64,000 nucleotides of DNA from a virus. Below the pieces are notes generated by a model. That model was given only the letters and a program-made list of their open reading frames with translations. It was not told where the DNA came from and made no database searches. The stretch covers positions 83,720 to 147,719 of the IMG/VR virus record IMGVR_UViG_3300014808_000001; one strand, 5' to 3'. Shown in pieces: positions 2,878-36,417 of this stretch. The position numbers were made by a program, and so were the translations under genes. Numbering within the stretch: the first letter of the stretch is position 1; every line of letters starts with the position of its first letter.

Positions 2878-5133
2878 ATGGGTGTCAAATGTCAGATAGA
2901 AAAAAAGGAAAATGAAATAAAACGGGTTAAGGCTCCTAACGGGGAGCCTTCCGTTCTTTACGAAAGTGCTTTAAAAGTATTAGGAAACAGCGAGCGGGCT
3001 CTTCAGGTATGGGCTAAGGCTTACACTCCTGGTTTTTTGTCGTATTACGGTCATTGGAATAACCCGGCTCCAGGAGAGATGTTTAATACCGATCCCAATG
3101 GTGAACCTCTTTTAGAAGACGTGCTGTCGTATATGAAGCGTCAGACTTATTTTTCCGATCCCTTAACGGCTCAGGATGTTAAGGATGTAAGAGATGTTAT
3201 GATATCCAATTCCATATATAGCATACGATCTCTTATTAATAGAGTTAGAAGCTCTTTTTATGTGGATGGTAATCTTATCCTAAATGAAGAAAATCTAAGG
3301 AGATCCGGCTTGTACAATGAGACAGAGATAAGTAGGATATTAGATAATCCTTCTGTACTTAATGAGGTCAGCTCTTTTATGAGGTTATTATTAGATTATT
3401 CCAATAACGAACACGATCTCGGGAAAGAGTCTTACTTCACAACCGTAGAAAAACCATACGGTCCTGTTGTGTATAAAAATGGTGTCTTCAATAAATTAGG
3501 AAAGAGAGCATCATATAATCCGGCTGAAGTTTACGAGGTTATAAAAAATACAGTAGGAGGTATTAGTGTTGCTTCAGAGTTTGATGCTGCTTTCGAATCT
3601 TTATCTGATTCATATCCGGAGTTAGTTGAAAGATATCAGTCGGATAAGAGTTTTGCCTTGTCGCTGTTCAACGAATTTTCGAATATGAACATCGTTCCGG
3701 TTGTGGCTTTAGAAGATAATAATATCGTAGAAGGGAAGAGACGGTCATTATCAAAGTTGCAAGATTATGCTTATTACAGCCCTATTGGATCTGAGTCATT
3801 ACGAGCTCGTATATCAGCCTTTCTAAACAGGGTTAATGCTGATACAGAAGAAGACCTTAGAAGTATGATATGGGATGTAGAAGAGGCTTGTGTAGGTCTT
3901 GGTATAGATATCGTAGGCGTGTCTAAGGCATATGACGGAACAGAAGAATCGCTGAATAAAATTGATAGCTTGATGCTGGATCTTGATATTTATGTAGCAA
4001 GGCGCAACGATGATACTTATGCTCCTACCTTAGCTTCTGCTATCGATGACGTTCTTGGAGATAGCCAGGATCGCCGTGTTATGTTTCTGCCAGAGTATAT
4101 GGATAATATGAATATCGTTTATATGGAATCTGACATAGATCCGGTATCGGCATTTGAAAATCATTCTCTGCTTTATCTTGGTGGAAACCTATATCATAAG
4201 GTAGAAAGAGATAATTTAGGTGATTTGTACGATATAGCTGCCGAGCTTGCCAAGCGGAGTCTAACTTATTTCCCACCTGGTATCTATCCTGAATATTGTT
4301 TTAAGGATGGTGTTTTAGATAAGCTCCGCGTGAAAAACGTAGATAGTAAGGCCCTTGCTGATTCTATTAAAAAATACGTCCTGTCTTATACCGATTCTCA
4401 GAATACGGAAGAGATGAATGCTACCAGATTGGCGTTCGGTCATCTTGTTGTTCCTGGAAGCCCGTATGTTAATGAAGAACGGGAGTTTAGCCGATACATA
4501 AACAGAAAGCAGGACAAAGAGAATCCTTTACTCTTATTCGATTTATACCAATCTTATCTTGAAAATAAGCTTCATAATACGGAAGTGTACGAAGGGGCAT
4601 ACAAGTATCTTGACTTTAAACCAGATCATTTACTGGGTCTTACCGTTTCAGATCCGGATACGTTAAAACAAATTGAACTATCTTTGGCAGGTAATGATCG
4701 TGAGCAGTTATTTGAGTATAGCATGAGCAGCACCGATCCTTCTTTTACAGATCTGTTCTATTTGGATTATTATGATATGTTATATGCCGGTTCTGATTTC
4801 TATCACGATCTTTTTACGAAACATCCTAATCTCTTAAATGAGGTTCGGGATCATAACATAACTAAGCAGGATGATAATGTTATCGTAGAAGGTTTGTATG
4901 ATAATTTTATCAGAATAGGAGACATGGTGTTCACTAAAGTTGGCGAAAGTAGTTCCGGCTCTATCTACCAAAATCTAACAGGAACCGAATCGGAGGTGAA
5001 ATACGATTCTACTCAGAAGGCTAAGACGGTAGAAACCGATTACGCTCCATACCAAAACAAATCTGGCTTGACGCAAGATATGACCGTAAGCAAGTCTGAA
5101 TTGGATGATCTTAATAAATTGGAATGCAGGTAA
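2878..5133 (+). CDS. hypothetical large phage protein (751 aa), possibly structural
   Basis: Long ORF, followed by rho-independent terminator at 5177-5210. Confidence 0.5.
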   Translation: MGVKCQIEKKENEIKRVKAPNGEPSVLYESALKVLGNSERALQVWAKAYTPGFLSYYGHWNNPAPGEMFNTDPNGEPLLEDVLSYMKRQTYFSDPLTAQDVKDVRDVMISNSIYSIRSLINRVRSSFYVDGNLILNEENLRRSGLYNETEISRILDNPSVLNEVSSFMRLLLDYSNNEHDLGKESYFTTVEKPYGPVVYKNGVFNKLGKRASYNPAEVYEVIKNTVGGISVASEFDAAFESLSDSYPELVERYQSDKSFALSLFNEFSNMNIVPVVALEDNNIVEGKRRSLSKLQDYAYYSPIGSESLRARISAFLNRVNADTEEDLRSMIWDVEEACVGLGIDIVGVSKAYDGTEESLNKIDSLMLDLDIYVARRNDDTYAPTLASAIDDVLGDSQDRRVMFLPEYMDNMNIVYMESDIDPVSAFENHSLLYLGGNLYHKVERDNLGDLYDIAAELAKRSLTYFPPGIYPEYCFKDGVLDKLRVKNVDSKALADSIKKYVLSYTDSQNTEEMNATRLAFGHLVVPGSPYVNEEREFSRYINRKQDKENPLLLFDLYQSYLENKLHNTEVYEGAYKYLDFKPDHLLGLTVSDPDTLKQIELSLAGNDREQLFEYSMSSTDPSFTDLFYLDYYDMLYAGSDFYHDLFTKHPNLLNEVRDHNITKQDDNVIVEGLYDNFIRIGDMVFTKVGESSSGSIYQNLTGTESEVKYDSTQKAKTVETDYAPYQNKSGLTQDMTVSKSELDDLNKLECR

Positions 5134-5176
5134 TTTTTGTATACATATAATATAGTTTTTTCATAATTACGATTTG

Positions 5177-5210
5177 GAAAGTGAGGCTTGTGAAAGTCTC
5201 ACTTTTCTCA
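5177..5210 (+). terminator. rho-independent terminator
   Basis: Stem AAAGTGAG / CTCACTTT with 12-nt loop followed by TTTTCTC directly after stop of 2878-5133. Confidence 0.5.
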
Positions 5211-5842
5211 TATATGCACGTATATCAATAACATACAAGAAAAGTTAGATTTTCATTGTTTATGAATTATTTTTATTAAGTTTGCAATATTAGTTTCAGG
5301 AAGGGATTATAGAAATAGGAAAAAGTAAGAACCGGACGTAACTAATAACAGTAGGAAATGAGAATCAGTACCATCAAACGTAACAACAGCATTCATCTTA
5401 TGTATAAAAACATTATGAATGATTTAGGTCAATTAAGAACTGTAGTTTCAAAATCCTATATTTATAATCTGATATAAAATCAAACCGGATTAAGTATCAG
5501 AACTATATCCCATGTCTTGAATCACACAAAAGAACAGGATACAGATTCTTTGTGAAAACCATACATTTTCATACATTTGTGTGTTCTTTAGTTTTTAGAT
5601 TTAAGTTTTTCATGGTATTAGTTTAGATTAGTGTAGATCAGGGTTCGCAGTGATGCGGGCCCTGGTTTGTTTTAAAAAGTATTAAAATATTTGTTATTTA
5701 AAATCCTGTTCCTATCTTTATTCCAGAAACAATGAACAACGAGATCCCACCTCTGGTTGTTTGATGTTGAAAGATATTTTTGGCTCATTAGGGTTTGTCA
5801 TAGTGGGATCTGACATTCTCTTTTGGGCCTATTTTTTTTATT

Positions 5843-6496
5843 ATGGATAATACTTGTATTCCTTTTGTGTTAATAAACGACAGAAAAATGATTGACGCAA
5901 AACATGTTCATAAATTGTTAGAATGTAAGTATGATTTTAAACATTGGATTAAGGATGTAATATCATCTTTTAATTTTAAGGATGGAATAGATTATATATC
6001 ATATAGATATGATAATAATGGAGAACAAATAATAGATAATAATAGTCATGTATTTAGGCATGACTATTATTTATTCCCCAAATCGATTCTGTGTATCATC
6101 TATATGAAGTGTGATAGATCTTTATTTAAAGATTTTATTTATGATATATTTGATTGTTGTAATATTAAAAATGACGATCGGGTATTAGATATAATACATA
6201 GATCTATCGATAGGTATAATAAAAAATGTATAAAATATTTTACATATATAATAAGAAATAATAATAATGGTTTTTATAAAATAGGTAAAAGCTCTGATGT
6301 AAAAAGAAGGCTATCTGGGTTGTCTATTGTAGAAGATAACTTAACATTAATAGCTTATGTGAATAAAGATATAGAGAGCGAGCTTCATGCAAGATTTGAT
6401 ATCAAAGGGATATACAGAGAATGGTTCAACTTATCAGATTGCGATTTGAATGATATAATTGATAAATATAAATTCAAGTTGTGTGACATGGCTTGA
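5843..6496 (+). CDS. AntA/AntB-like N-terminal domain fused to T5orf172 (GIY-YIG-like) domain protein
   Basis: N-term DAKHVHKLLECKYDFKHWIKD...GIDYI resembles AntA antirepressor N-domain; C-term GFYKIGKSSDVKRRLSGL matches T5orf172/GIY-YIG-like motif; gene is far more AT-rich than neighbours. Confidence 0.55.
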   Translation: MDNTCIPFVLINDRKMIDAKHVHKLLECKYDFKHWIKDVISSFNFKDGIDYISYRYDNNGEQIIDNNSHVFRHDYYLFPKSILCIIYMKCDRSLFKDFIYDIFDCCNIKNDDRVLDIIHRSIDRYNKKCIKYFTYIIRNNNNGFYKIGKSSDVKRRLSGLSIVEDNLTLIAYVNKDIESELHARFDIKGIYREWFNLSDCDLNDIIDKYKFKLCDMA

Positions 6497-6678
6497 ATTT
6501 TATTACAATAAAAAGTGATTAAGAGATGAGTCTATGGTGATATTTACTCATCTCTTCTTATTTTTCTGAAAATACTTCTCTTCTATAGGAAATAAACACA
6601 CCCATATTCCACCCTGCAATCATGATCTTTGTTACGTGCTTCATGCACATATGTTTAACAATTAAATACTATAAAATT

Positions 6679-7686
6679 ATGGGTGGTGATAAAATCGTCC
6701 TTTTAGATGGAGCCGGGGCTAACGGTGGTGGTGCAGCCACTAACGGTCTTCTTTCAATGATTCCCGGCATGTTTGCTAATTTGATAGGTGGTAATAAAAT
6801 GGATCCGAATCTGGTGGCGGCTTTGATGAACGGTCGTAACAACCAGGACGGTTTCGGTGGGGCTAACGGTTGGTGGCTCTGGATAATTGTTTTGTTCTGG
6901 CTGTGGGGTGGACGCGGCTTCGGTAACGGTTTTGGAAATGGCGGTGATTGTTGTGCCAATGGTTTGCCGGCTCAGTTGAATAACGATTACGGTCGTGAAC
7001 TTTTGATGCAGGCAATTCAAGGTAATCGTAGCGCCATAGATCAGATTGCTTCTGCTTTGAACTGTTCTACTACTCAACTTCAAAACGCTATCTGCAACGT
7101 ACAGGGTGCTATTGATAAAGTAGCTGGTCAGGTAGGTATGACTTCTCAGGCTGTTATCAACGCAGTTCAACAACAAGGTTGTGAAATAGGAAATCAAATC
7201 AGCTCTTGCTGCTGCAATTTGAGTTCGTTGATCAATCAAAGCACTTGCCAGACTCAGGGAATGATTACTCAGCAAGGTTTTGATAACCAGCTTCGCACGT
7301 TGGAACAAACCAATATCTTGCAGAACGGTCTCAACCAAGGTCTGGCTAACAATCGTGAGCAAGCTACAAGCCAATTCAATATCTTGTCTGCGAAACTTGA
7401 CGCCCAAACCGTTATGATCAACGACAAATTCTGTCAGTTGGAAATGAGGGAGATGCAGAACACTATTGCTCAACTTCGTGAAGAAAAAGCGGCTTTGACA
7501 GCTTCGGCATTATCTCAGCAACAAACCCAGAATATCGTTGGTCAATTACGCCCGACGGCCGTCCCGGCCTACCCCTCTTGTTCTCCTTACCAGGCTTATA
7601 CTTGGGGACAGGTATTCGGAGGAGGTTGCTGTAATAACGGATGCGGATGTAACAACGGATGTTGCAATAACAACGCTGCTGTCTGA
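6679..7686 (+). CDS. Gly/Cys/Gln/Asn-rich single-pass membrane protein with coiled-coil (likely start MGGDK at 6679; ORF opens at 6622)
   Basis: Gly-rich N-term, TM segment WWLWIIVLFWLWGG, Q/N-rich coiled-coil middle, Cys clusters CCC and terminal GGGCCNNGCGCNNGCCNNN. Confidence 0.5.
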   Translation: MGGDKIVLLDGAGANGGGAATNGLLSMIPGMFANLIGGNKMDPNLVAALMNGRNNQDGFGGANGWWLWIIVLFWLWGGRGFGNGFGNGGDCCANGLPAQLNNDYGRELLMQAIQGNRSAIDQIASALNCSTTQLQNAICNVQGAIDKVAGQVGMTSQAVINAVQQQGCEIGNQISSCCCNLSSLINQSTCQTQGMITQQGFDNQLRTLEQTNILQNGLNQGLANNREQATSQFNILSAKLDAQTVMINDKFCQLEMREMQNTIAQLREEKAALTASALSQQQTQNIVGQLRPTAVPAYPSCSPYQAYTWGQVFGGGCCNNGCGCNNGCCNNNAAV

Positions 7687-7696
7687 TTTTATTAAG

Positions 7697-7703
7697 AAAG
7701 GAG
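7697..7703 (+). promoter_or_regulatory. Shine-Dalgarno AAGGAGG for 7710 gene
   Basis: AAGGAGG 6 nt upstream of ATG at 7710; most other genes in window lack such a site. Confidence 0.45.
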
Positions 7704-7709
7704 GCTAAT

Positions 7710-8123
7710 ATGGCTTGTGTTTCTAAAATAGGATCGTTGTATGAGATGGTTACGAAGAATGTTATTGTCAGTACGACAAATACAGTCTTCGGTATTAACC
7801 CACGGGCTTGGATCGCCCTTCCGTGTGAGGGTCTTATCCTTCTTAAGATAAGGCAAGTAGTCCCCACAGCCGGAAGTGCTCTACCGGTACAGATTGCGGT
7901 CCCGGCAAACAGCACAGTTTCAACAGTAGGAGCCGACACCTGTTGCCCTGTTACGGGAGTGAATGTCGTGAACCCTATTAACGTAGCTGTCACGGGTGCT
8001 GCTATGGTAAATGGCACAGAACGCCTTCTGTACTTCAATAAAGTTCGTGGCGTGTTAAGATTAATGGATTGTTGTGTTCCAACAACAACAGCCCAGGCGT
8101 CTGAAGTTAAAGCAGGTAAATGA
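7710..8123 (+). CDS. hypothetical protein (137 aa), Cys-pair containing
   Basis: Strong RBS, terminator downstream; antisense ORF 7463-8038 is a shadow. Confidence 0.55.
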   Translation: MACVSKIGSLYEMVTKNVIVSTTNTVFGINPRAWIALPCEGLILLKIRQVVPTAGSALPVQIAVPANSTVSTVGADTCCPVTGVNVVNPINVAVTGAAMVNGTERLLYFNKVRGVLRLMDCCVPTTTAQASEVKAGK

Positions 8124-8130
8124 TTTCAGT

Positions 8131-8160
8131 AGGGTGATGGAGATCATCACCCTATTTTCA
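8131..8160 (+). terminator. rho-independent terminator
   Basis: AGGGTGATG gagat CATCACCCT hairpin followed by ATTTTCA. Confidence 0.5.
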
Positions 8161-8173
8161 CCTAACTAATATT

Positions 8174-8668
8174 TTGATCATGTTTTCAGATTTGAAGAAA
8201 GGGTTTCAGGTACATACCCTTGATACTAATACAGTACCTAAATACGAATTGGGAAAGGTAGTAGCCGTATCCGAACCCAGGTATCTTCCTCCTCAGCCAG
8301 GTCAGTATCAGGCGATGCAGACCCGCGTGGTGGATCTGACGGTAGAGCTCACTGGCGAAACCAAGACCTATACGGTCCCGGAATCCCAGAATGTGGCTAA
8401 GGCTATGGGCATAACATTATCTACCAGCATAGATCCGATTATGAACGAACTGAATGCTATAAAAAACACCAGTCAAGACATAATAAACAGCGTAGATGCC
8501 CATCGTGCCAAGATAGAGGCTTGTGAATCTATATTAGAAGACATCAATCCGGCATTCAAACAAACGAGAGAGCAGGATCGTAAAATAGCTGGTATAGAAA
8601 ATAAGGTGAATGACCTTACTGATTCATTCGAAGATTTAAAGAAGTTAATTGTAGAACGTTTGAAATAA
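8174..8668 (+). CDS. hypothetical coiled-coil protein (164 aa)
   Basis: ORF with charged heptad-like C-terminal half. Confidence 0.45.
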   Translation: MIMFSDLKKGFQVHTLDTNTVPKYELGKVVAVSEPRYLPPQPGQYQAMQTRVVDLTVELTGETKTYTVPESQNVAKAMGITLSTSIDPIMNELNAIKNTSQDIINSVDAHRAKIEACESILEDINPAFKQTREQDRKIAGIENKVNDLTDSFEDLKKLIVERLK

Positions 8669-8675
8669 GTATAAT

Positions 8676-9044
8676 ATGATAGTATATGATTTAAATTCAG
8701 GACATAGAGAATATCCTGGATATGATGAGATAGAAGACAGACGGGGTGGAGGTAGAGGAAGAAGCCGCCGTTCTGATGGGACATACATGGGGTACGGTGG
8801 TGGTATTTACGACCATTACGGTATGCATGAGAAGATGAAGGAAATGGAAGAACGCGAAAACGAGCTGGAAGAAAGGGAAAGAAGGCTCGAAGAGCGCGAA
8901 CGTCGTCATGAAATGGAGGACCGGGAATACCGGAGGATGGGTTACGAATCCTACCCGATTGATTACTATGGAGACGACAGATACTACGGTGACGGACCTC
9001 AGATGCGTAGAGGTCGCGGACGTGGCAGAGGTCGTTCTTATTGA
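8676..9044 (+). CDS. low-complexity RGG-box / ERERR-repeat protein (122 aa)
   Basis: GGGRGRSRR N-term, EERENELEERERRLEERERRHE middle, RRGRGRGRGRSY C-term; antisense ORF 8697-9248 is a shadow. Confidence 0.45.
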   Translation: MIVYDLNSGHREYPGYDEIEDRRGGGRGRSRRSDGTYMGYGGGIYDHYGMHEKMKEMEERENELEERERRLEERERRHEMEDREYRRMGYESYPIDYYGDDRYYGDGPQMRRGRGRGRGRSY

Positions 9045-30979: not shown

Positions 30980-31142
30980 AATGATCGGTCAGTTCTTCTG
31001 GTTCTAAATCTTGTCCAAAATCCATATTAAAAACATATTAATCAATAAAGCGCTAAAAAGCACTATTCCTGCTGGCATAAAATCTATAAATGCTGCTTTT
31101 GCTTCTTCAATTAGGCCCAAGTGTAACCTTGGGCCATTGTAT

Positions 31143-32843
31143 TTATTTTTTGTCATCTCCTTTTAACTTCTTTAAAGTATCTGCAATCGGAAGCTGATCA
31201 ATAACTCCCAATGCCGGAGCGACGGTCTTAACAACATTGTTAAGAAAATTACCGGTACTGTTCTGACCGCCGTCAAATACCGTGATATTTCCGAGGTTAA
31301 TGTGCTCAAATGCCTTAACCTGTTCTCCGGCAATTTCTTTCCACTGATTAACCATCTTGTACTGGATGGCGATCTGAGGATTGGATTCTGCTGCTTCCAC
31401 CATAGCCTTAAATCCGTCGGCTTCTGCCATTAACGATTTTTTCTTACCTTCGGCTTCTGCCTCCAGCTTCATCTGAATAGCTTTTGCCTCCGCCTCAGCT
31501 TTTGCCAAATGTGCTGCTGCCTCAGCCTCAGCCCGGCGTTTGATCTTCTCGGCTTCAGCATCAGCTTGCAAGATAGCCTCTTCCTTCTGGGTTTCAGCCG
31601 GCACAATCTTTTCAGCCTTAAGCGCAGCCTGAACTTTCTTAGCCTTAGCTTCTTCCACTTCTTTGTCGGCAAGCTCTTTTGCTGTTTTTACAGCCGCTTC
31701 CGATTTAACTTTTTCTTCTCCGGCCTTCTTCTCTGATTGAGCTTTGATGATCTGTAGTTCTGATACTGATACAGCAACCTCCTTCTGGGCATTGTTGTAT
31801 CCTATAGACGCATTTTTCTCAGCCTCAGCCTTCTTAATCTGAGCTTCAGAGTCTTGTATTGCTATAGCTGCTTCCTTGTCAGCTTCAGCCTTATTCTTTC
31901 CGACTTCTTCCATTCTTTCAGCCTCGGCTTTATTTACTTCAAGTTCTGCCTTAGATCTTACGATCGCCGATTCCTTGTCGGTTAAAGTTTTTGCGATAAC
32001 CGCAGCCCTGTCTCTATCTGCTTGAGCTACACCGATCTGTTTCTCTTTATCGGTTAAAGCTAAAGCTATTTCTTTTTCTTTCTTCGTTTCAGCTACTATT
32101 GTCTCCTTTTCTTTTTCAGTACAAGCAATTTGAATCTCTTGTTCTTTTTTGGTATTAGCCACAGCCGTTTCTTTTTCCTTCTGCTGTACAGCAATTTTAA
32201 TAGCACCCAGCTTCTCCTGTTCTTCGATATTAGCCTGTGCCTCGTTCAGAGCCCTACTTTCAGCTTCCTTACCAAGGTTCATAATATAACCGGCTTCGTC
32301 TCTGATGTCACTGATGTTGATGTTCAGGAGGTAAAGACCTAACTTGTTAAGCTCGTTATCAATGTTCTTTCTCGCCTTATCCAAAAACTCATCCCTGTCA
32401 GAATTAAGTTTTTCGATTGTCATTTCAGCAATAATCAAACGCATCTGACCGTAAACGATGTCCGTAATAAGATTTTCAGTAGATTCGGTATCCATCCCCA
32501 AAAGTCTTTCTGCCGCATTTTGCATGATTTCTGGATTTGTACTGATAGCTACTGTAATAGTCGTAGGTACATCTACTCTAATATTCTGAGATGACAAAGC
32601 ACCGGTAAGCTTGCAATCTATTTGCATAGGCTCCATTGACAAAACATCATAGCTTTGAATAATAGGCAAGACAAATGCCGCTCCACCATGATATAATTTC
32701 GCCGATTTCTTTTCCCCACCTGTCTTACCATAAACGACCAAGACCTGATTAGGCTTACATCTACGATACCTTGATAAGACTCCGATGATTGTCAAAATAA
32801 TCACTACAGCTAAGATAGCTGACACGTACATGATTGTTGTCAT
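31143..32843 (-). CDS. flotillin / SPFH (band 7) domain protein with long Ala/Glu/Lys coiled-coil
   Basis: N-terminal TM helix then LSRYRRCKPNQVLVVYGKTGG ... GGAAFVLPIIQSYDVLSMEPMQIDCKL ... NIRVDVPTTITVAIS typical of YqiK/FloT flotillins; low-complexity internal ORFs are shadows. Confidence 0.75.
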   Translation of the reverse strand: MTTIMYVSAILAVVIILTIIGVLSRYRRCKPNQVLVVYGKTGGEKKSAKLYHGGAAFVLPIIQSYDVLSMEPMQIDCKLTGALSSQNIRVDVPTTITVAISTNPEIMQNAAERLLGMDTESTENLITDIVYGQMRLIIAEMTIEKLNSDRDEFLDKARKNIDNELNKLGLYLLNINISDIRDEAGYIMNLGKEAESRALNEAQANIEEQEKLGAIKIAVQQKEKETAVANTKKEQEIQIACTEKEKETIVAETKKEKEIALALTDKEKQIGVAQADRDRAAVIAKTLTDKESAIVRSKAELEVNKAEAERMEEVGKNKAEADKEAAIAIQDSEAQIKKAEAEKNASIGYNNAQKEVAVSVSELQIIKAQSEKKAGEEKVKSEAAVKTAKELADKEVEEAKAKKVQAALKAEKIVPAETQKEEAILQADAEAEKIKRRAEAEAAAHLAKAEAEAKAIQMKLEAEAEGKKKSLMAEADGFKAMVEAAESNPQIAIQYKMVNQWKEIAGEQVKAFEHINLGNITVFDGGQNSTGNFLNNVVKTVAPALGVIDQLPIADTLKKLKGDDKK

Positions 32844-32875
32844 AACTTTTAAAATTTAATTGTTGATAAAAAAAA

Positions 32876-33370
32876 TTAGATACTTAATTCTCCTTCTTCA
32901 TATTTTATATTCGCCTTGTCGCCGTTTTTGTAGGTTTTCCCAGACAAGCATCTTACTCTCATTTGCTCTTGTCTTCCATTTTTCGAAATATTTACCATAT
33001 AATGATTCTTCCCTGATCTAAACACTATCTCCACTTCTCTGCCATTTAAATCTTCCGGACATTCGTACACCATTTCTTGCTTTAACTTAAGAAGTAACTT
33101 ATATACGTAAAACAAAACGATAAAGAAAAACGACCCTATCACAACCCCTACTAAATGGGAACCCGAAAAGTATGTGGTCCAGCTATATCCAAGAATAAAA
33201 TGTGTTATGCCCTTGAATGATATGATGTCCGACAAAGACATGCTTAAATCAGAAGCGCTGTTAATGTCAATATCCGTATCCAGATCAGATCCTAATATCG
33301 ACAACAAAAACTGTATAACAAAAGCAAATGACGCTATTAAAGCCATGCATAAAATTATATCACTTCCCAT
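32876..33370 (-). CDS. NfeD/YqiJ-like membrane protein (flotillin partner)
   Basis: Several TM helices followed by a C-terminal soluble beta-rich domain (GREVEIVFRSGKNHYMVNISKNG ... GDKANIKYEEGEL); sits immediately upstream of the flotillin as in yqiJ-yqiK operons. Confidence 0.5.
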   Translation of the reverse strand: MGSDIILCMALIASFAFVIQFLLSILGSDLDTDIDINSASDLSMSLSDIISFKGITHFILGYSWTTYFSGSHLVGVVIGSFFFIVLFYVYKLLLKLKQEMVYECPEDLNGREVEIVFRSGKNHYMVNISKNGRQEQMRVRCLSGKTYKNGDKANIKYEEGELSI

Positions 33371-33611
33371 ACCCTTCTGTTATTATTTTGTAAACAAGAT
33401 CAGTCATATCTTTGATGGTCTCCATATCATAATCAGTAATAACAATATTTAATTTTTGTTCCACCATCATTTCCAGTTCAATTTGATCAAGAGAATCTAA
33501 TCCAAGTTCTTTAAACGTCACATCTTCTTCATGAACTATATCCATTTCCGAATTAAGAAACTGAGTAATAATTATATCCTCTATAATCTTTCTGATTTCT
33601 ACTTTTTCCAT
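33360..33611 (-). CDS. acpP: acyl carrier protein (83 aa)
   Basis: FKELGLDSLDQIELEMMVEQKL matches the ACP phosphopantetheine-attachment motif (LG.DSLD..EL). Confidence 0.75.
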   Translation of the reverse strand: MEKVEIRKIIEDIIITQFLNSEMDIVHEEDVTFKELGLDSLDQIELEMMVEQKLNIVITDYDMETIKDMTDLVYKIITEGYGK

Positions 33612-34312
33612 TGCTTTCTAATTTTGTTAAATAAGTATGTTTTTATGTTTTTCAATCTCTCTTTGTCTGTTTCAGAACTTCCGGTAAACAAATAATCCGG
33701 ATTGCCTTTAGCCGGCGGCGTAGGCAATTTAGATACGGCAAACAACCAATCCATTTCCTTATTCTTCTTAGACTCCAAATAAGGCTCGGTAGCGATCTTA
33801 AATTTTTCAGCTATTAAGTCAAAGAGCTTTGAATTTTTAAGGTTCATATGAACTGAAAAAGCCTGAGAAGGCGGTTTCCATATGAAGTTACATAAGCTCA
33901 TTGTATAATCTCCTGACTCTGCTATATAAGATTCCGTTACCTGAAGTATGACCTCTTTCTTGAATGAGGTGTTACCCATAAACCAACACAATCTGGATTC
34001 CGCTTCTTTTCTACTGACACCTATATCCTTTGAATATGATTCGTACATTCCTATCATAATCTTCAACGTTTCCAGAACCTCATCCGTCATTTCCGGTGTC
34101 TCTATATAATTCACAAAAGACGTTCCCTTGTTGGTCAATCTCATCACGCCTGATTTTAATTTCTCAACCAGGCCAAGCTCTATATACCTCCCAGCATCTT
34201 TTTCCAGCATGGCTTCGATCATAACCGTATCCTTCTGTCTTATAGCAAGAAGATTAGCCAGATCATTAGGAGTCATGTCTGATGCTGCAAGTTGTCTGAA
34301 ATTGATGTACAT
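33599..34312 (-). CDS. hypothetical protein (237 aa), first large gene of the ACP-NfeD-flotillin operon
   Basis: ORF overlapping the ACP start by 13 nt. Confidence 0.45.
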   Translation of the reverse strand: MYINFRQLAASDMTPNDLANLLAIRQKDTVMIEAMLEKDAGRYIELGLVEKLKSGVMRLTNKGTSFVNYIETPEMTDEVLETLKIMIGMYESYSKDIGVSRKEAESRLCWFMGNTSFKKEVILQVTESYIAESGDYTMSLCNFIWKPPSQAFSVHMNLKNSKLFDLIAEKFKIATEPYLESKKNKEMDWLFAVSKLPTPPAKGNPDYLFTGSSETDKERLKNIKTYLFNKIRKQWKK

Positions 34313-34314
34313 GC

Positions 34315-34524
34315 CTAATCAGCTTTAATAAAAATAACATCCTTACCATCCTCCCTCTCTACGTGATTACACGGGCCTGCGACTACATCTACCGACCCGC
34401 ATGTAATGTGGTCATTAAATATACATCCTTCACATCCTAAGTCTGGCTCTGGAGCATCCACACATTTTAATCTCACAAGTCCGGCATCAAACACTTCTCC
34501 TACTTTAAATTCCTTCTTTTCCAT
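34315..34524 (-). CDS. hypothetical small Cys-containing protein (69 aa)
   Basis: ORF. Confidence 0.35.
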   Translation of the reverse strand: MEKKEFKVGEVFDAGLVRLKCVDAPEPDLGCEGCIFNDHITCGSVDVVAGPCNHVEREDGKDVIFIKAD

Positions 34525-35185: not shown

Positions 35186-36376
35186 TTACAAAATGTTTAC
35201 TCTAATCGGGTTAAACGCAAACCCACTATCGATTATCATGTTTACAAATGAATCACCGAATACTTTTCTACCTATCCCAATAGCTCCATTGATATCCGCA
35301 TTTAACAACTTTCCAACTGAGCTTTGGAATAATCCACGTTTCTTTCTTTTGCCTAAGTAAACATCATGCTTCCCTAATTTCTCAAAAGCTAAATGATCAA
35401 CCTTTGATGTATAGGATTCTTCATTAATTTGAAAGCTGATACCTACCAACTTACATTTATAGGATATTTTGTCTATAAGTCTTGAAAAAGGTATTTCAAC
35501 AAACTTTTGATTAATCTTCTTTCCAAGATTAATCTTTTGTTTCCATCCTTTATTTAAACCTATTACGATACTACCAATGTTGTTAGTAATACAATAATTG
35601 ACAATATATCGACTAACCTTGTGGATGTAGTCTTCTATCCAAAAATTCCTATAATTATTTAGCTGTCTAAGTCTTTCAGAAGTACCCTTACCTCCAACAT
35701 AAGACATTAACTTAGCTTTCCTCTTATTGTACCACTGATTAAAAGATTTCATAATCCGCCCGTTTACAATGAAAGGAACCAATCCGGCATTGCTGATACA
35801 TGAACATAAATTATTCAATCCTAAATCAATCGAAAGAACATTATCCTTATCAAGACTTAGATTATGTTCTTTCTTTTCATAAATTACTTCAACCACATAG
35901 CATGTAGATTGTGGAATGATTCTAACCTGACATAATTTACTATCTCCTATTTCAGTTTTAATTGGTTGAATTATATTTTTAACAAAATGAATACAACCAT
36001 CCTTCTTTAGCCTACAAGCAGAAGTTGTGAACACAACCATGTTCTGTTTCTTGCCTTTCTTGTACGAAGGTAGATGAGGACAACAATTATCGTATTTGGA
36101 AGGATTGTTTTCAAAATCCTTCTTGAGTCTAATCCATGATTTTATATTTTTAAAAACTTGGCCAACTACTTGTTGAAAAACAGAAGTGGGCAAATTCCTG
36201 AAATCAAATTGATTTTCTCTACAAAGTTTGGTTGAAAATTCATATTCATTCAGATATTCTTTATTGAAGATACCTTTACGCGCATTATACAAGACATAAT
36301 TATATAGCAATCCTGATTTGAGGCAAATATCTTCAAATCTGTTATCTTTAATAATATGTTTTTCAACCAATCTCAT
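35186..36376 (-). CDS. tnpB: TnpB-like (IS605 OrfB family) protein with degenerate RuvC-II and no zinc finger, possibly nuclease-dead and TldR-like
   Basis: RuvC-I VLSIDLGLNNL; EDYIHKVSRYIVN helix motif; the expected RuvC-II h-h-h-E-D-L-N is IVIGLNKGW (Glu replaced); RuvC-III NADINGAIGIGRK present; the CxxC...CxxC zinc finger is replaced by a Cys-free segment. First codon in the track is TTG; the ATG follows. Confidence 0.75.
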   Translation of the reverse strand: MRLVEKHIIKDNRFEDICLKSGLLYNYVLYNARKGIFNKEYLNEYEFSTKLCRENQFDFRNLPTSVFQQVVGQVFKNIKSWIRLKKDFENNPSKYDNCCPHLPSYKKGKKQNMVVFTTSACRLKKDGCIHFVKNIIQPIKTEIGDSKLCQVRIIPQSTCYVVEVIYEKKEHNLSLDKDNVLSIDLGLNNLCSCISNAGLVPFIVNGRIMKSFNQWYNKRKAKLMSYVGGKGTSERLRQLNNYRNFWIEDYIHKVSRYIVNYCITNNIGSIVIGLNKGWKQKINLGKKINQKFVEIPFSRLIDKISYKCKLVGISFQINEESYTSKVDHLAFEKLGKHDVYLGKRKKRGLFQSSVGKLLNADINGAIGIGRKVFGDSFVNMIIDSGFAFNPIRVNIL

Positions 36377-36417
36377 CAATCAATTTTACTATTTGAAATT
36401 TCAATTTTATTACCTTT

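Follow-up and report, generated by a model that had tools for sequence, protein, structure and literature searches.

What a flotillin gene does in the genome of a bacteriophage, with which of its neighbours it belongs and where it came from are the questions raised by a locus of IMG/VR virus record IMGVR_UViG_3300014808_000001. The DNA analysed here, called the window, is a stretch of 64,000 nucleotides (nt) corresponding to positions 83,720 to 147,719 of that record, and coordinates are those of the window unless another sequence is named. A first-pass annotation had read five minus-strand genes as one operon coding for a 69-amino-acid (aa) protein, a 237-aa protein, an acyl carrier protein (ACP), an NfeD/YqiJ-like membrane protein and a flotillin. 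The five open reading frames (ORFs) were recovered with the same coordinates and lengths (69, 237, 83, 164 and 566 aa, respectively). The unit itself has to be redrawn. The set made of the flotillin gene, the gene of the 164-aa protein (hereafter the partner) and a gene for a 50-aa protein is the content of a variable cargo slot, which the ACP gene and the p119 gene flank in an array of replication genes, and the 69-aa protein, the 237-aa protein and the ACP are neighbours of the flotillin, not its functional partners.

The flotillin and its partner

The main gene of the cargo cassette (31143..32843, minus strand) encodes a flotillin-type SPFH protein of 566 aa. In Pfam, the Band_7 profile (PF01145) matched residues 30-211 with an E-value of 7.6e-26 and 91.7 bits (cut-off 23.6), and the Flot profile (PF15975) matched residues 450-559 with an E-value of 2.1e-9 and 38 bits (cut-off 27). 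Both domains pass the curated cut-offs, and the earlier assignment to the flotillins, for which a Band_7 profile search had been proposed as a check, is upheld. A single hydropathy segment was detected, at residues 1-28 (Kyte-Doolittle mean 2.83). This N-terminal membrane anchor (32760..32843) is followed by the basic stretch RYRRCK and, according to the positive-inside rule, the bulk of the protein should be cytoplasmic. The SPFH/Band 7 domain (residues 30-211, 32211..32756) is followed by a coiled coil rich in A, E and K, of polymorphic length (residues 212-461, 31461..32210), and by the flotillin C-terminal domain (residues 450-559, 31167..31496). The closest relatives of solved structure are human flotillin-2 (6.8e-23) and flotillin-1 (4.9e-19), the flotillin-2 alignment reaching residue 305. 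Orthology with the FloT of Bacillus was not found: the NCBIfam equivalog model NF058507 gave 144.5 bits for a cut-off of 700. By its sequence the protein is thus a flotillin of the FloT/YqiK type and not a FloT orthologue, and its nearest relatives are the flotillins of Bacteroidaceae. The SPFH domain is 77-79% identical to those of Bacteroides and Phocaeicola, and the SPFH and C-terminal domains together span 71-79%.

The partner gene (32876..33370, minus strand) lies upstream of the flotillin gene, in the same direction, and encodes a 164-aa protein predicted to be anchored in the membrane. The NfeD-like label given to it was to be checked with profile hidden Markov models, and there it failed. 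No match to NfeD (PF01957) or YqiJ (PF21001) was obtained in Pfam at E=10, nothing was found in NCBIfam, PHROGs or PADLOC, and the NfeD and YqiJ profiles did not match the Bacteroides and phage homologues of the partner either. What supports the label is the predicted fold, the architecture and the gene neighbourhood. In the AlphaFold model (AF2; mean predicted local distance difference test score 74 overall, 83-90 at residues 110-164), three membrane helices (residues 2-25, 52-69 and 72-101) are predicted, together with an acidic loop that is disordered and, at the C-terminus, a barrel of six strands; hydropathy segments were detected at residues 1-30 and 67-96. The membrane part (residues 1-101, 33068..33370) would thus consist of helix 1, the acidic DTDIDI loop and helices 2 and 3, and the OB-like beta-barrel would occupy residues 110-164 (32879..33043), in a YqiJ-like architecture. 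The predicted barrel is nearest to solved NfeD domains and corresponds to an OB fold of the NfeD type; one of the solved NfeD structures, 3cp0, bears the description 'membrane protein implicated in regulation of membrane protease activity'.

A library-wide profile search collected 404 representative proteins of the partner family, of about 165-180 aa. Pfam NfeD is matched by 3 out of 81 members (best 6e-5), and members from Planctomycetia and Crocinitomix gave sub-threshold matches to YqiJ_N and NfeD. When a profile of 81 partner sequences was searched against the PDB, the best soluble match was YuaF (2k14), over its entire OB domain, at an E-value of 0.11; a HMMER profile built on 13 partners retrieved no NfeD structure from the PDB sequences. 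The partner and its Bacteroides homologues have the invariant residues D31..D35 and S51-F-K-G..H57-F in common. The partner is therefore best described as NfeD-like by fold, architecture and neighbourhood and, by sequence, as no more than a putative member of the family.

The first-pass annotation also considered that the region could be host DNA brought in by a chimeric assembly or a prophage boundary. The window is colinear with the complete 151-kb human-gut phage csAssE-Sib (OR575929.1) over positions 89.7-147.7 kb of the record, with a nucleotide identity of 96.5% for the locus and of 93% for its flanks, and the flotillins are 99.8% identical. This phage encodes a terminase, a portal, a capsid, a 'muzzle', a 'ring', a diversity-generating retroelement and tRNAs, and its GenBank annotation uses crAss-phage structural terms. 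The flotillin locus is present on 165 IMG/VR contigs, the gene order being uniform in the best 80 of the 165, and a sister lineage, whose flotillin is 82% identical, shows the order DnaB-200-237-ACP-partner-flotillin-52 aa ... exonuclease, with no 69-aa gene. An assembly chimera or a prophage boundary is excluded by the colinearity with csAssE-Sib, which holds on both sides of the locus, by the 165 contigs and by the sister lineage, and the locus is phage-borne. That a flotillin is unusual in a phage was confirmed too: a flotillin-like match was found in only 11 of 50,697 GenBank phage records, and among these the complete phages are csAssE-Sib and Vibrio phage KIT04.

Cargo slot, origin and loss of the pair

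The extent of the unit was assessed in relatives with and without the flotillin. Homologues of the 237-aa protein were found on contigs of 110-157 kb, at identities going down to 36%. In relatives whose DnaB, 237-aa protein and exonuclease are, respectively, 59%, 60% and 70% identical to those of the window, neither partner nor flotillin is present and the order is DnaB-200-121aa-237-ACP-[C5 DNA methylase]-p119-like-53aa-[two radical-SAM genes]-exonuclease (SAM, S-adenosylmethionine). In the distant relatives L201/L202, this variable cargo region (5941-8946) comprises the C5 DNA methylase gene in the flotillin slot, the p119-like gene, the 53-aa gene and the two radical-SAM genes, and is followed by the PD-(D/E)XK exonuclease gene, the gene that the p119 gene also precedes in the flotillin-bearing phages. 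A further relative also lacks both partner and flotillin. The 237-aa and ACP genes are assigned to the phage backbone because they are kept in relatives without flotillin; they persist in flotillin deletion variants as well. The five-gene operon does not hold, since the 237-aa and ACP genes persist without the flotillin, the 69-aa gene is missing in the sister lineage and bacterial counterparts exist for the partner and the flotillin alone.

These counterparts were sought in one genome per bacterial species. In 29 loci of Bacteroides, Phocaeicola and other Bacteroidaceae-type genomes, a flotillin 62-66% identical to that of the phage over its full length was found and, at all 29, a partner homologue (165-177 aa, 32-40% identity, pairwise E-value 1e-29) is encoded directly upstream; the same arrangement occurs in two distant bacterial loci. 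No homologue of the 69-aa, 237-aa, ACP, 200-aa or 50-aa phage ORFs was found in the bacterial flanks. A TruA-like housekeeping neighbour is present at 13 bacterial loci and another locus sits among core metabolic genes, and from this conserved neighbourhood the bacterial pair looks chromosomal and vertically inherited. A transfer from phage to bacterium was considered and is unlikely, the bacterial pair being in a conserved chromosomal neighbourhood across species. In a neighbour-joining (NJ) tree of few taxa with one outgroup, the phage flotillins group in a single clade, next to that of the sampled Bacteroides+Phocaeicola sequences, and phage alleles nested among bacterial ones were not seen. 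The identity between phage and Bacteroides flotillins (69%) is near that between Bacteroides and Phocaeicola (74%). From these sequence comparisons we infer that both genes were taken up together, in a single event that preceded the separation of the two phage lineages, and that the donor was Bacteroidaceae-like. The earlier proposal of a Bacteroidota host as their source is thus supported by both the 29 loci and the position in the tree.

The fate of the pair within the phage group was followed in loci sampled through the 237-aa gene, a sampling unbiased with respect to the flotillin (n=78; L113 was left out, having been fetched deliberately as a deletion variant). The partner and a full-length flotillin are present in 51 loci, the partner without flotillin in 22, and the remaining 5 are without both or parts of both, so that an intact flotillin is absent in 27/78. 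At least 10 different flotillin deletion junctions were distinguished from BLAST breakpoints. The commonest deletion runs, in T-runs, from 3-5 nt past the partner stop codon (~32871) to ~31033 inside the 50-aa gene, which is thereby removed along with the flotillin; another takes the ACP, partner and flotillin genes together (33561->31171), and in L113 an in-frame fusion joins the partner to the C-terminus of the flotillin. Among the clean flotillin-less alleles, at least three differ in their left breakpoint (about 32849-32874) but have nearly the same right breakpoint (about 31031-31049), in the T-run TTTTTAATATGG of the 50-aa gene. This T-run may be a hotspot for deletion or recombination.

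Smaller changes were found within the flotillin itself. In-frame deletions of 2, 6, 8, 9, 11, 13, 33, 85, 90, 99, 118 and 156 aa were observed, nearly all of them within residues 306-461, and the search for DNA tandem repeats behind these coiled-coil indels gave only four very short, low-scoring arrays. Beside the main cluster of full-length flotillins (2433 members), truncated forms devoid of the C-terminal domain are represented by P0161 (425 aa, 348 member sequences) and P0129 (507 aa, 172). If the coiled coil sets the height of a flotillin cage, the coiled-coil deletions would be natural size variants.

The intact alleles are conserved. For 58 distinct intact flotillin alleles, the ratio of nonsynonymous to synonymous substitution rates (dN/dS) is 0.034 overall, with 0.016 in the SPFH domain, 0.053 in the coiled coil and 0.011 in the C-terminal domain. 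Between the two lineages, where synonymous sites are saturated, the flotillin dN is 0.119, compared with 0.149 for DnaB and 0.167 for the exonuclease. The partner ORF is intact (162-164 codons) in all 20 flotillin-less genomes examined (L118, L120, L121, L124 and others), where the ratio of nonsynonymous to synonymous polymorphism (pN/pS) of the partner is 0.107 versus 0.067, a polymorphism that may partly predate the flotillin deletions. The intact flotillin alleles are therefore under strong purifying selection, yet the module is repeatedly lost: it is an optional accessory of these phages.

Neighbouring genes and layout of the array

The 50-aa protein (31004..31156, minus strand) was overlooked by the first-pass annotation and is probably the third member of the cassette. 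It has a C-terminal membrane segment (hydropathy segment 20-50), its gene shares 14 nt with the stop end of the flotillin gene, and a 52-aa membrane protein is encoded at the same position in the sister lineage. No homologue was found in the bacterial flotillin loci, though the protein is too short for easy detection.

The 83-aa ACP (33360..33611, minus strand) is a backbone neighbour. The annotation of this protein was sustained by the proposed profile search, Pfam PP-binding (PF00550) matching above its cut-off (3.8e-7, 30.7 bits, cut-off 20.8). PHROG 5934 'acyl carrier protein' was also matched (8.4e-10), several NCBIfam ACP models matched below their own cut-offs, and the motif LGLDSLD is present with the serine of DSL intact. 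In the ACP-like protein of L201/L202 (5675-5938) this motif reads LGFDDLD, the attachment serine being replaced by Asp. This replacement suggests that the backbone 'ACP' may work without a prosthetic group in part of the phage group. In the OR575929.1 annotation, over positions 1-100,000 and about 110,000-151,256, no phosphopantetheinyl transferase or acyl-processing enzyme is named, the hypothetical proteins not having been searched.

The 237-aa protein (33599..34312, minus strand), which belongs to the backbone of the replication module, is composed of an N-terminal MarR-like winged helix and a conserved helical domain with invariant W110 and W145 and the motif PPS-AFSVH, for which no structural match was obtained. 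Its best match among viral structures is an uncharacterised protein of Cellulophaga phage phi14:2 (E-value 1.7e-3). Its position next to DnaB would suit a factor acting in replication or transcription. An enzyme of lipid or ACP metabolism was ruled out by the MarR-like winged helix and the unmatched helical domain, and the weak matches to PADLOC LmuC (0.002) and Pfam Mrr_N (0.16) were rejected as winged-helix noise. The cysteine-rich 69-aa protein (34315..34524, minus strand) is hypervariable and lies outside the cassette. Among phages whose flanking genes are 97-100% identical its identity ranges from 59 to 100%, in discrete allele classes of about 60%, 80% and 100%, which from the sequences looks like allelic replacement by recombination. 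Its only match, to a PHROG of unknown function, is weak and uninformative.

The five genes had been described as having overlapping stops and starts. This is the case at two of the four junctions (13 nt between the 237-aa and ACP genes, 11 nt between the ACP and partner genes); gaps of 2 nt and 32 nt separate, respectively, the 69-aa from the 237-aa gene and the partner from the flotillin gene. Dense packing runs past the five genes in both directions, a 200-aa ORF being located 15 nt upstream and the 50-aa ORF overlapping the other end, and the array is part of a co-directional minus-strand block of ~40 kb (about 22 kb to 64 kb of the window). The scan for sigma-70 promoters gave 33 matches, compared with 30.1 in shuffled sequences, and that for terminators 8, compared with 5.8, so that neither is enriched; the Bacteroides -33/-7 motif TTTG-N17-23-TAnnTTTG was matched 3 times in the window for 3.3 expected, with no match near the locus. 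The five-gene unit thus shows no visible boundaries, no promoter or terminator signal delimiting it.

At ~22 kb the GC skew changes sign, from positive over 1-22 kb to negative over 22-64 kb. The switch coincides with the change, in csAssE-Sib, from plus-strand structural genes to a minus-strand replication/early block. A gene of the TnpB/IS605 OrfB type is inserted between the DnaB and 200-aa genes (35186-36379, minus strand; OrfB_IS605 1.5e-16, Cas12f1-like TNB 1.3e-7). This insertion is not found at that site in csAssE-Sib and occurs in about 6 of the 80 IMG/VR loci; csAssE-Sib has two other TnpB genes and related phages carry them at still other sites, so the element looks actively mobile in this phage group.

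Possible roles and comparison with known systems

The reading that we consider reasonably probable is that of a host-derived cassette which, lodged in a variable slot, provides a conditionally useful membrane-scaffold module in the infected cell. The cassette genes would probably be transcribed together with the replication genes. The N-terminal helix would anchor the flotillin, the bulk of which would remain in the cytoplasm, and by analogy with cellular flotillins the SPFH, coiled-coil and C-terminal regions may oligomerise at the inner membrane of the host, as a cage or a microdomain, and the cytoplasmic OB domain of the partner might dock onto this assembly. Given the 77-79% identity of the SPFH domain to that of the host, the phage flotillin could co-assemble with the host flotillin or substitute for it. 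The organisation or integrity of the inner membrane would then be altered or protected, with a payoff only in some hosts or conditions. Several points weigh against this scheme. Homology is the source of what is proposed on the timing of expression, the topology, the oligomerisation and the binding of the partner. The tree, which sets the phage clade outside the sampled Bacteroides+Phocaeicola group, points to no particular donor lineage. The frequent loss indicates that the module is dispensable, which also fits a function that rarely matters, and the pattern does not separate membrane maintenance from superinfection exclusion or counter-defence.

A tenable but somewhat doubtful alternative is that the cassette serves in conflict, its scaffold blocking DNA injection by superinfecting phages or stabilising the inner membrane against abortive-infection effectors that disrupt membranes. 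An SPFH-domain gene of Vi01-like phages is listed beside an annotated superinfection-exclusion gene in their genome paper (PMC3220722). Genes engaged in conflict typically combine, as here, presence/absence polymorphism and many independent losses with strong purifying selection. In relatives the slot is occupied by a C5 DNA methylase, with radical-SAM genes nearby, which would be cargo of the restriction-evasion type. This polymorphism and this cargo somewhat favour a role in conflict. No PADLOC defence model is matched by the flotillin, the partner or the 50-aa protein, and to our knowledge no superinfection-exclusion or anti-defence protein is a flotillin, both of which count against such a role, and the arguments for it are contextual throughout. 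It also overlaps with the scaffold scheme preferred here, from which it departs in the benefit and not in the assembly.

It is also conceivable, if unlikely, that the phage flotillin, by co-assembly, and its partner, by docking, act on the host flotillin cage itself, remodelling or disabling it and so sustaining the inner membrane during a long infection or blunting membrane-acting abortive-infection responses. An interaction with the host flotillin is a live possibility since the partner survives the loss of the phage flotillin and the conserved domains are 71-79% identical to those of the host. If true, no earlier case of a virus manipulating a bacterial flotillin system would precede it, and the polymorphism between flotillin-positive and flotillin-negative phages would mirror a conflict specific to host strains.

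SPFH proteins are regulators of proteases, as in the case of HflKC and FtsH, and the first-pass annotation had extended this paradigm, including the control of lambda CII, to the phage protein. The phage SPFH protein would modulate the host FtsH or another membrane protease and thereby stabilise a phage regulator or set lysis timing. The description of the NfeD structure 3cp0 mentions membrane protease regulation, and established literature, cited in the reference list of PMC10434171, ties Bacillus flotillins to FtsH. The architecture argues against this proposal, which we judge improbable. HflKC is a periplasm-facing pair of paralogues, HflK and HflC, whereas the phage has one flotillin-type SPFH gene with an NfeD-like neighbour, a Flot C-terminal domain and a predicted orientation towards the cytoplasm; moreover, hflKC is without nfeD association (PMC10434171), and the partner is a short NfeD-like form that lacks the protease domain. 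No integrase or CII-like switch is annotated in csAssE-Sib over the positions given above for OR575929.1. A role in lysis timing is without positional support because the endolysin cassette of csAssE-Sib is located ~80 kb away on the opposite strand.

That the pair is a passenger from the host, useless to the phage and in the course of being lost, is highly improbable: although many independent deletions have removed the flotillin from about a third of the related genomes and truncated alleles such as P0161 and P0129 are common, the intact alleles show the low dN/dS reported above, lowest in the SPFH and C-terminal domains, the flotillin has been kept in two lineages, its dN being no higher than those of core replication genes, and the partner is intact in every flotillin-less genome examined.

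Part of this locus was already on record. In GenBank, the entry of the near-identical phage csAssE-Sib (OR575929.1) bears the labels 'flotillin family protein', 'transmembrane protein' and 'acyl carrier protein' (WOZ57345.1, WOZ57346.1 and WOZ57347.1, respectively), the partner being designated as 'transmembrane protein' only, with the note hypothetical protein, and other large phages were already known to carry SPFH genes. In the literature searched, no paper naming csAssE-Sib or describing a phage-borne flotillin-partner pair was found. New here are the recognition of the partner, the derivation of the two genes together from a host, their setting in a cargo slot and the repeated losses. The annotation is corrected accordingly to a cargo cassette of partner, flotillin and probably the 50-aa protein, the ACP and the winged-helix protein belonging to the phage backbone. 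Bacterial flotillins and their NfeD partners are widespread and their function is poorly understood; an E. coli strain devoid of all four SPFH genes has no significant growth defect (PMC10434171). The phage pair offers a natural handle on this question. Its retention under strong purifying selection in an abundant gut phage, together with its repeated discard, suggests a real, condition-dependent effect on infected Bacteroides-type cells, and the intact, shortened coiled-coil, truncated, cleanly deleted and partner-only variants constitute a natural comparison set.

Among known systems, the SPFH genes of other large virulent phages look like independent acquisitions. The flotillin of the T5-like Vibrio phage KIT04 (LC487410) is 29% identical to that of the window. 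Directly upstream of it, an 82-aa protein is encoded (L198, 2680-2928) which resembles the membrane part of the partner by its three hydrophobic helices and its DLDD loop but, unlike the partner, has no OB domain and no Pfam or profile match; a T5-like phage may here have captured a flotillin pair independently. The SPFH protein of the Vi01-like phages, of which PhiSH19 is one, is short (263 aa) and not a flotillin, and PhiSH19 also encodes an ACP. By contrast, csAssE-Sib is essentially the same phage with the same locus, the window having the extra TnpB insertion.

The pair mirrors a bacterial arrangement, as the first-pass annotation had pointed out, in that the gene of a small membrane protein of NfeD/YqiJ type stands next to a flotillin gene. 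In E. coli yqiJ-yqiK and B. subtilis yuaF (NfeD2)-floT, a small membrane protein with a C-terminal NfeD-type OB domain is encoded directly upstream of the flotillin (PMC10434171). The phage flotillin resembles these in its N-terminal anchor, SPFH domain, long coiled coil and C-terminal oligomerisation region, and the two phage proteins are only remotely related to them by sequence. The closest counterparts are the chromosomal pairs of Bacteroides and Phocaeicola, such as those of B. xylanisolvens XB1A (L093, 4471-4968 and about 5001-6641) and P. vulgatus (L099), in which the same genes are found in the same order and spacing, with the motifs F-x-IQF-x-LS, DxDxD and SFKG-x-x-HF in common; identities to the phage proteins are 62-69% for the full-length flotillin and 32-42% for the partner. 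Compared with the chromosomal flotillin, the first coiled-coil segment of the phage copy is 22 residues longer and the Lys/Glu-rich C-terminal tail is missing; compared with the chromosomal pair, that of the phage is located in an array of replication genes, precedes the gene of a phage-specific membrane protein of 50 aa and is polymorphic for its presence.

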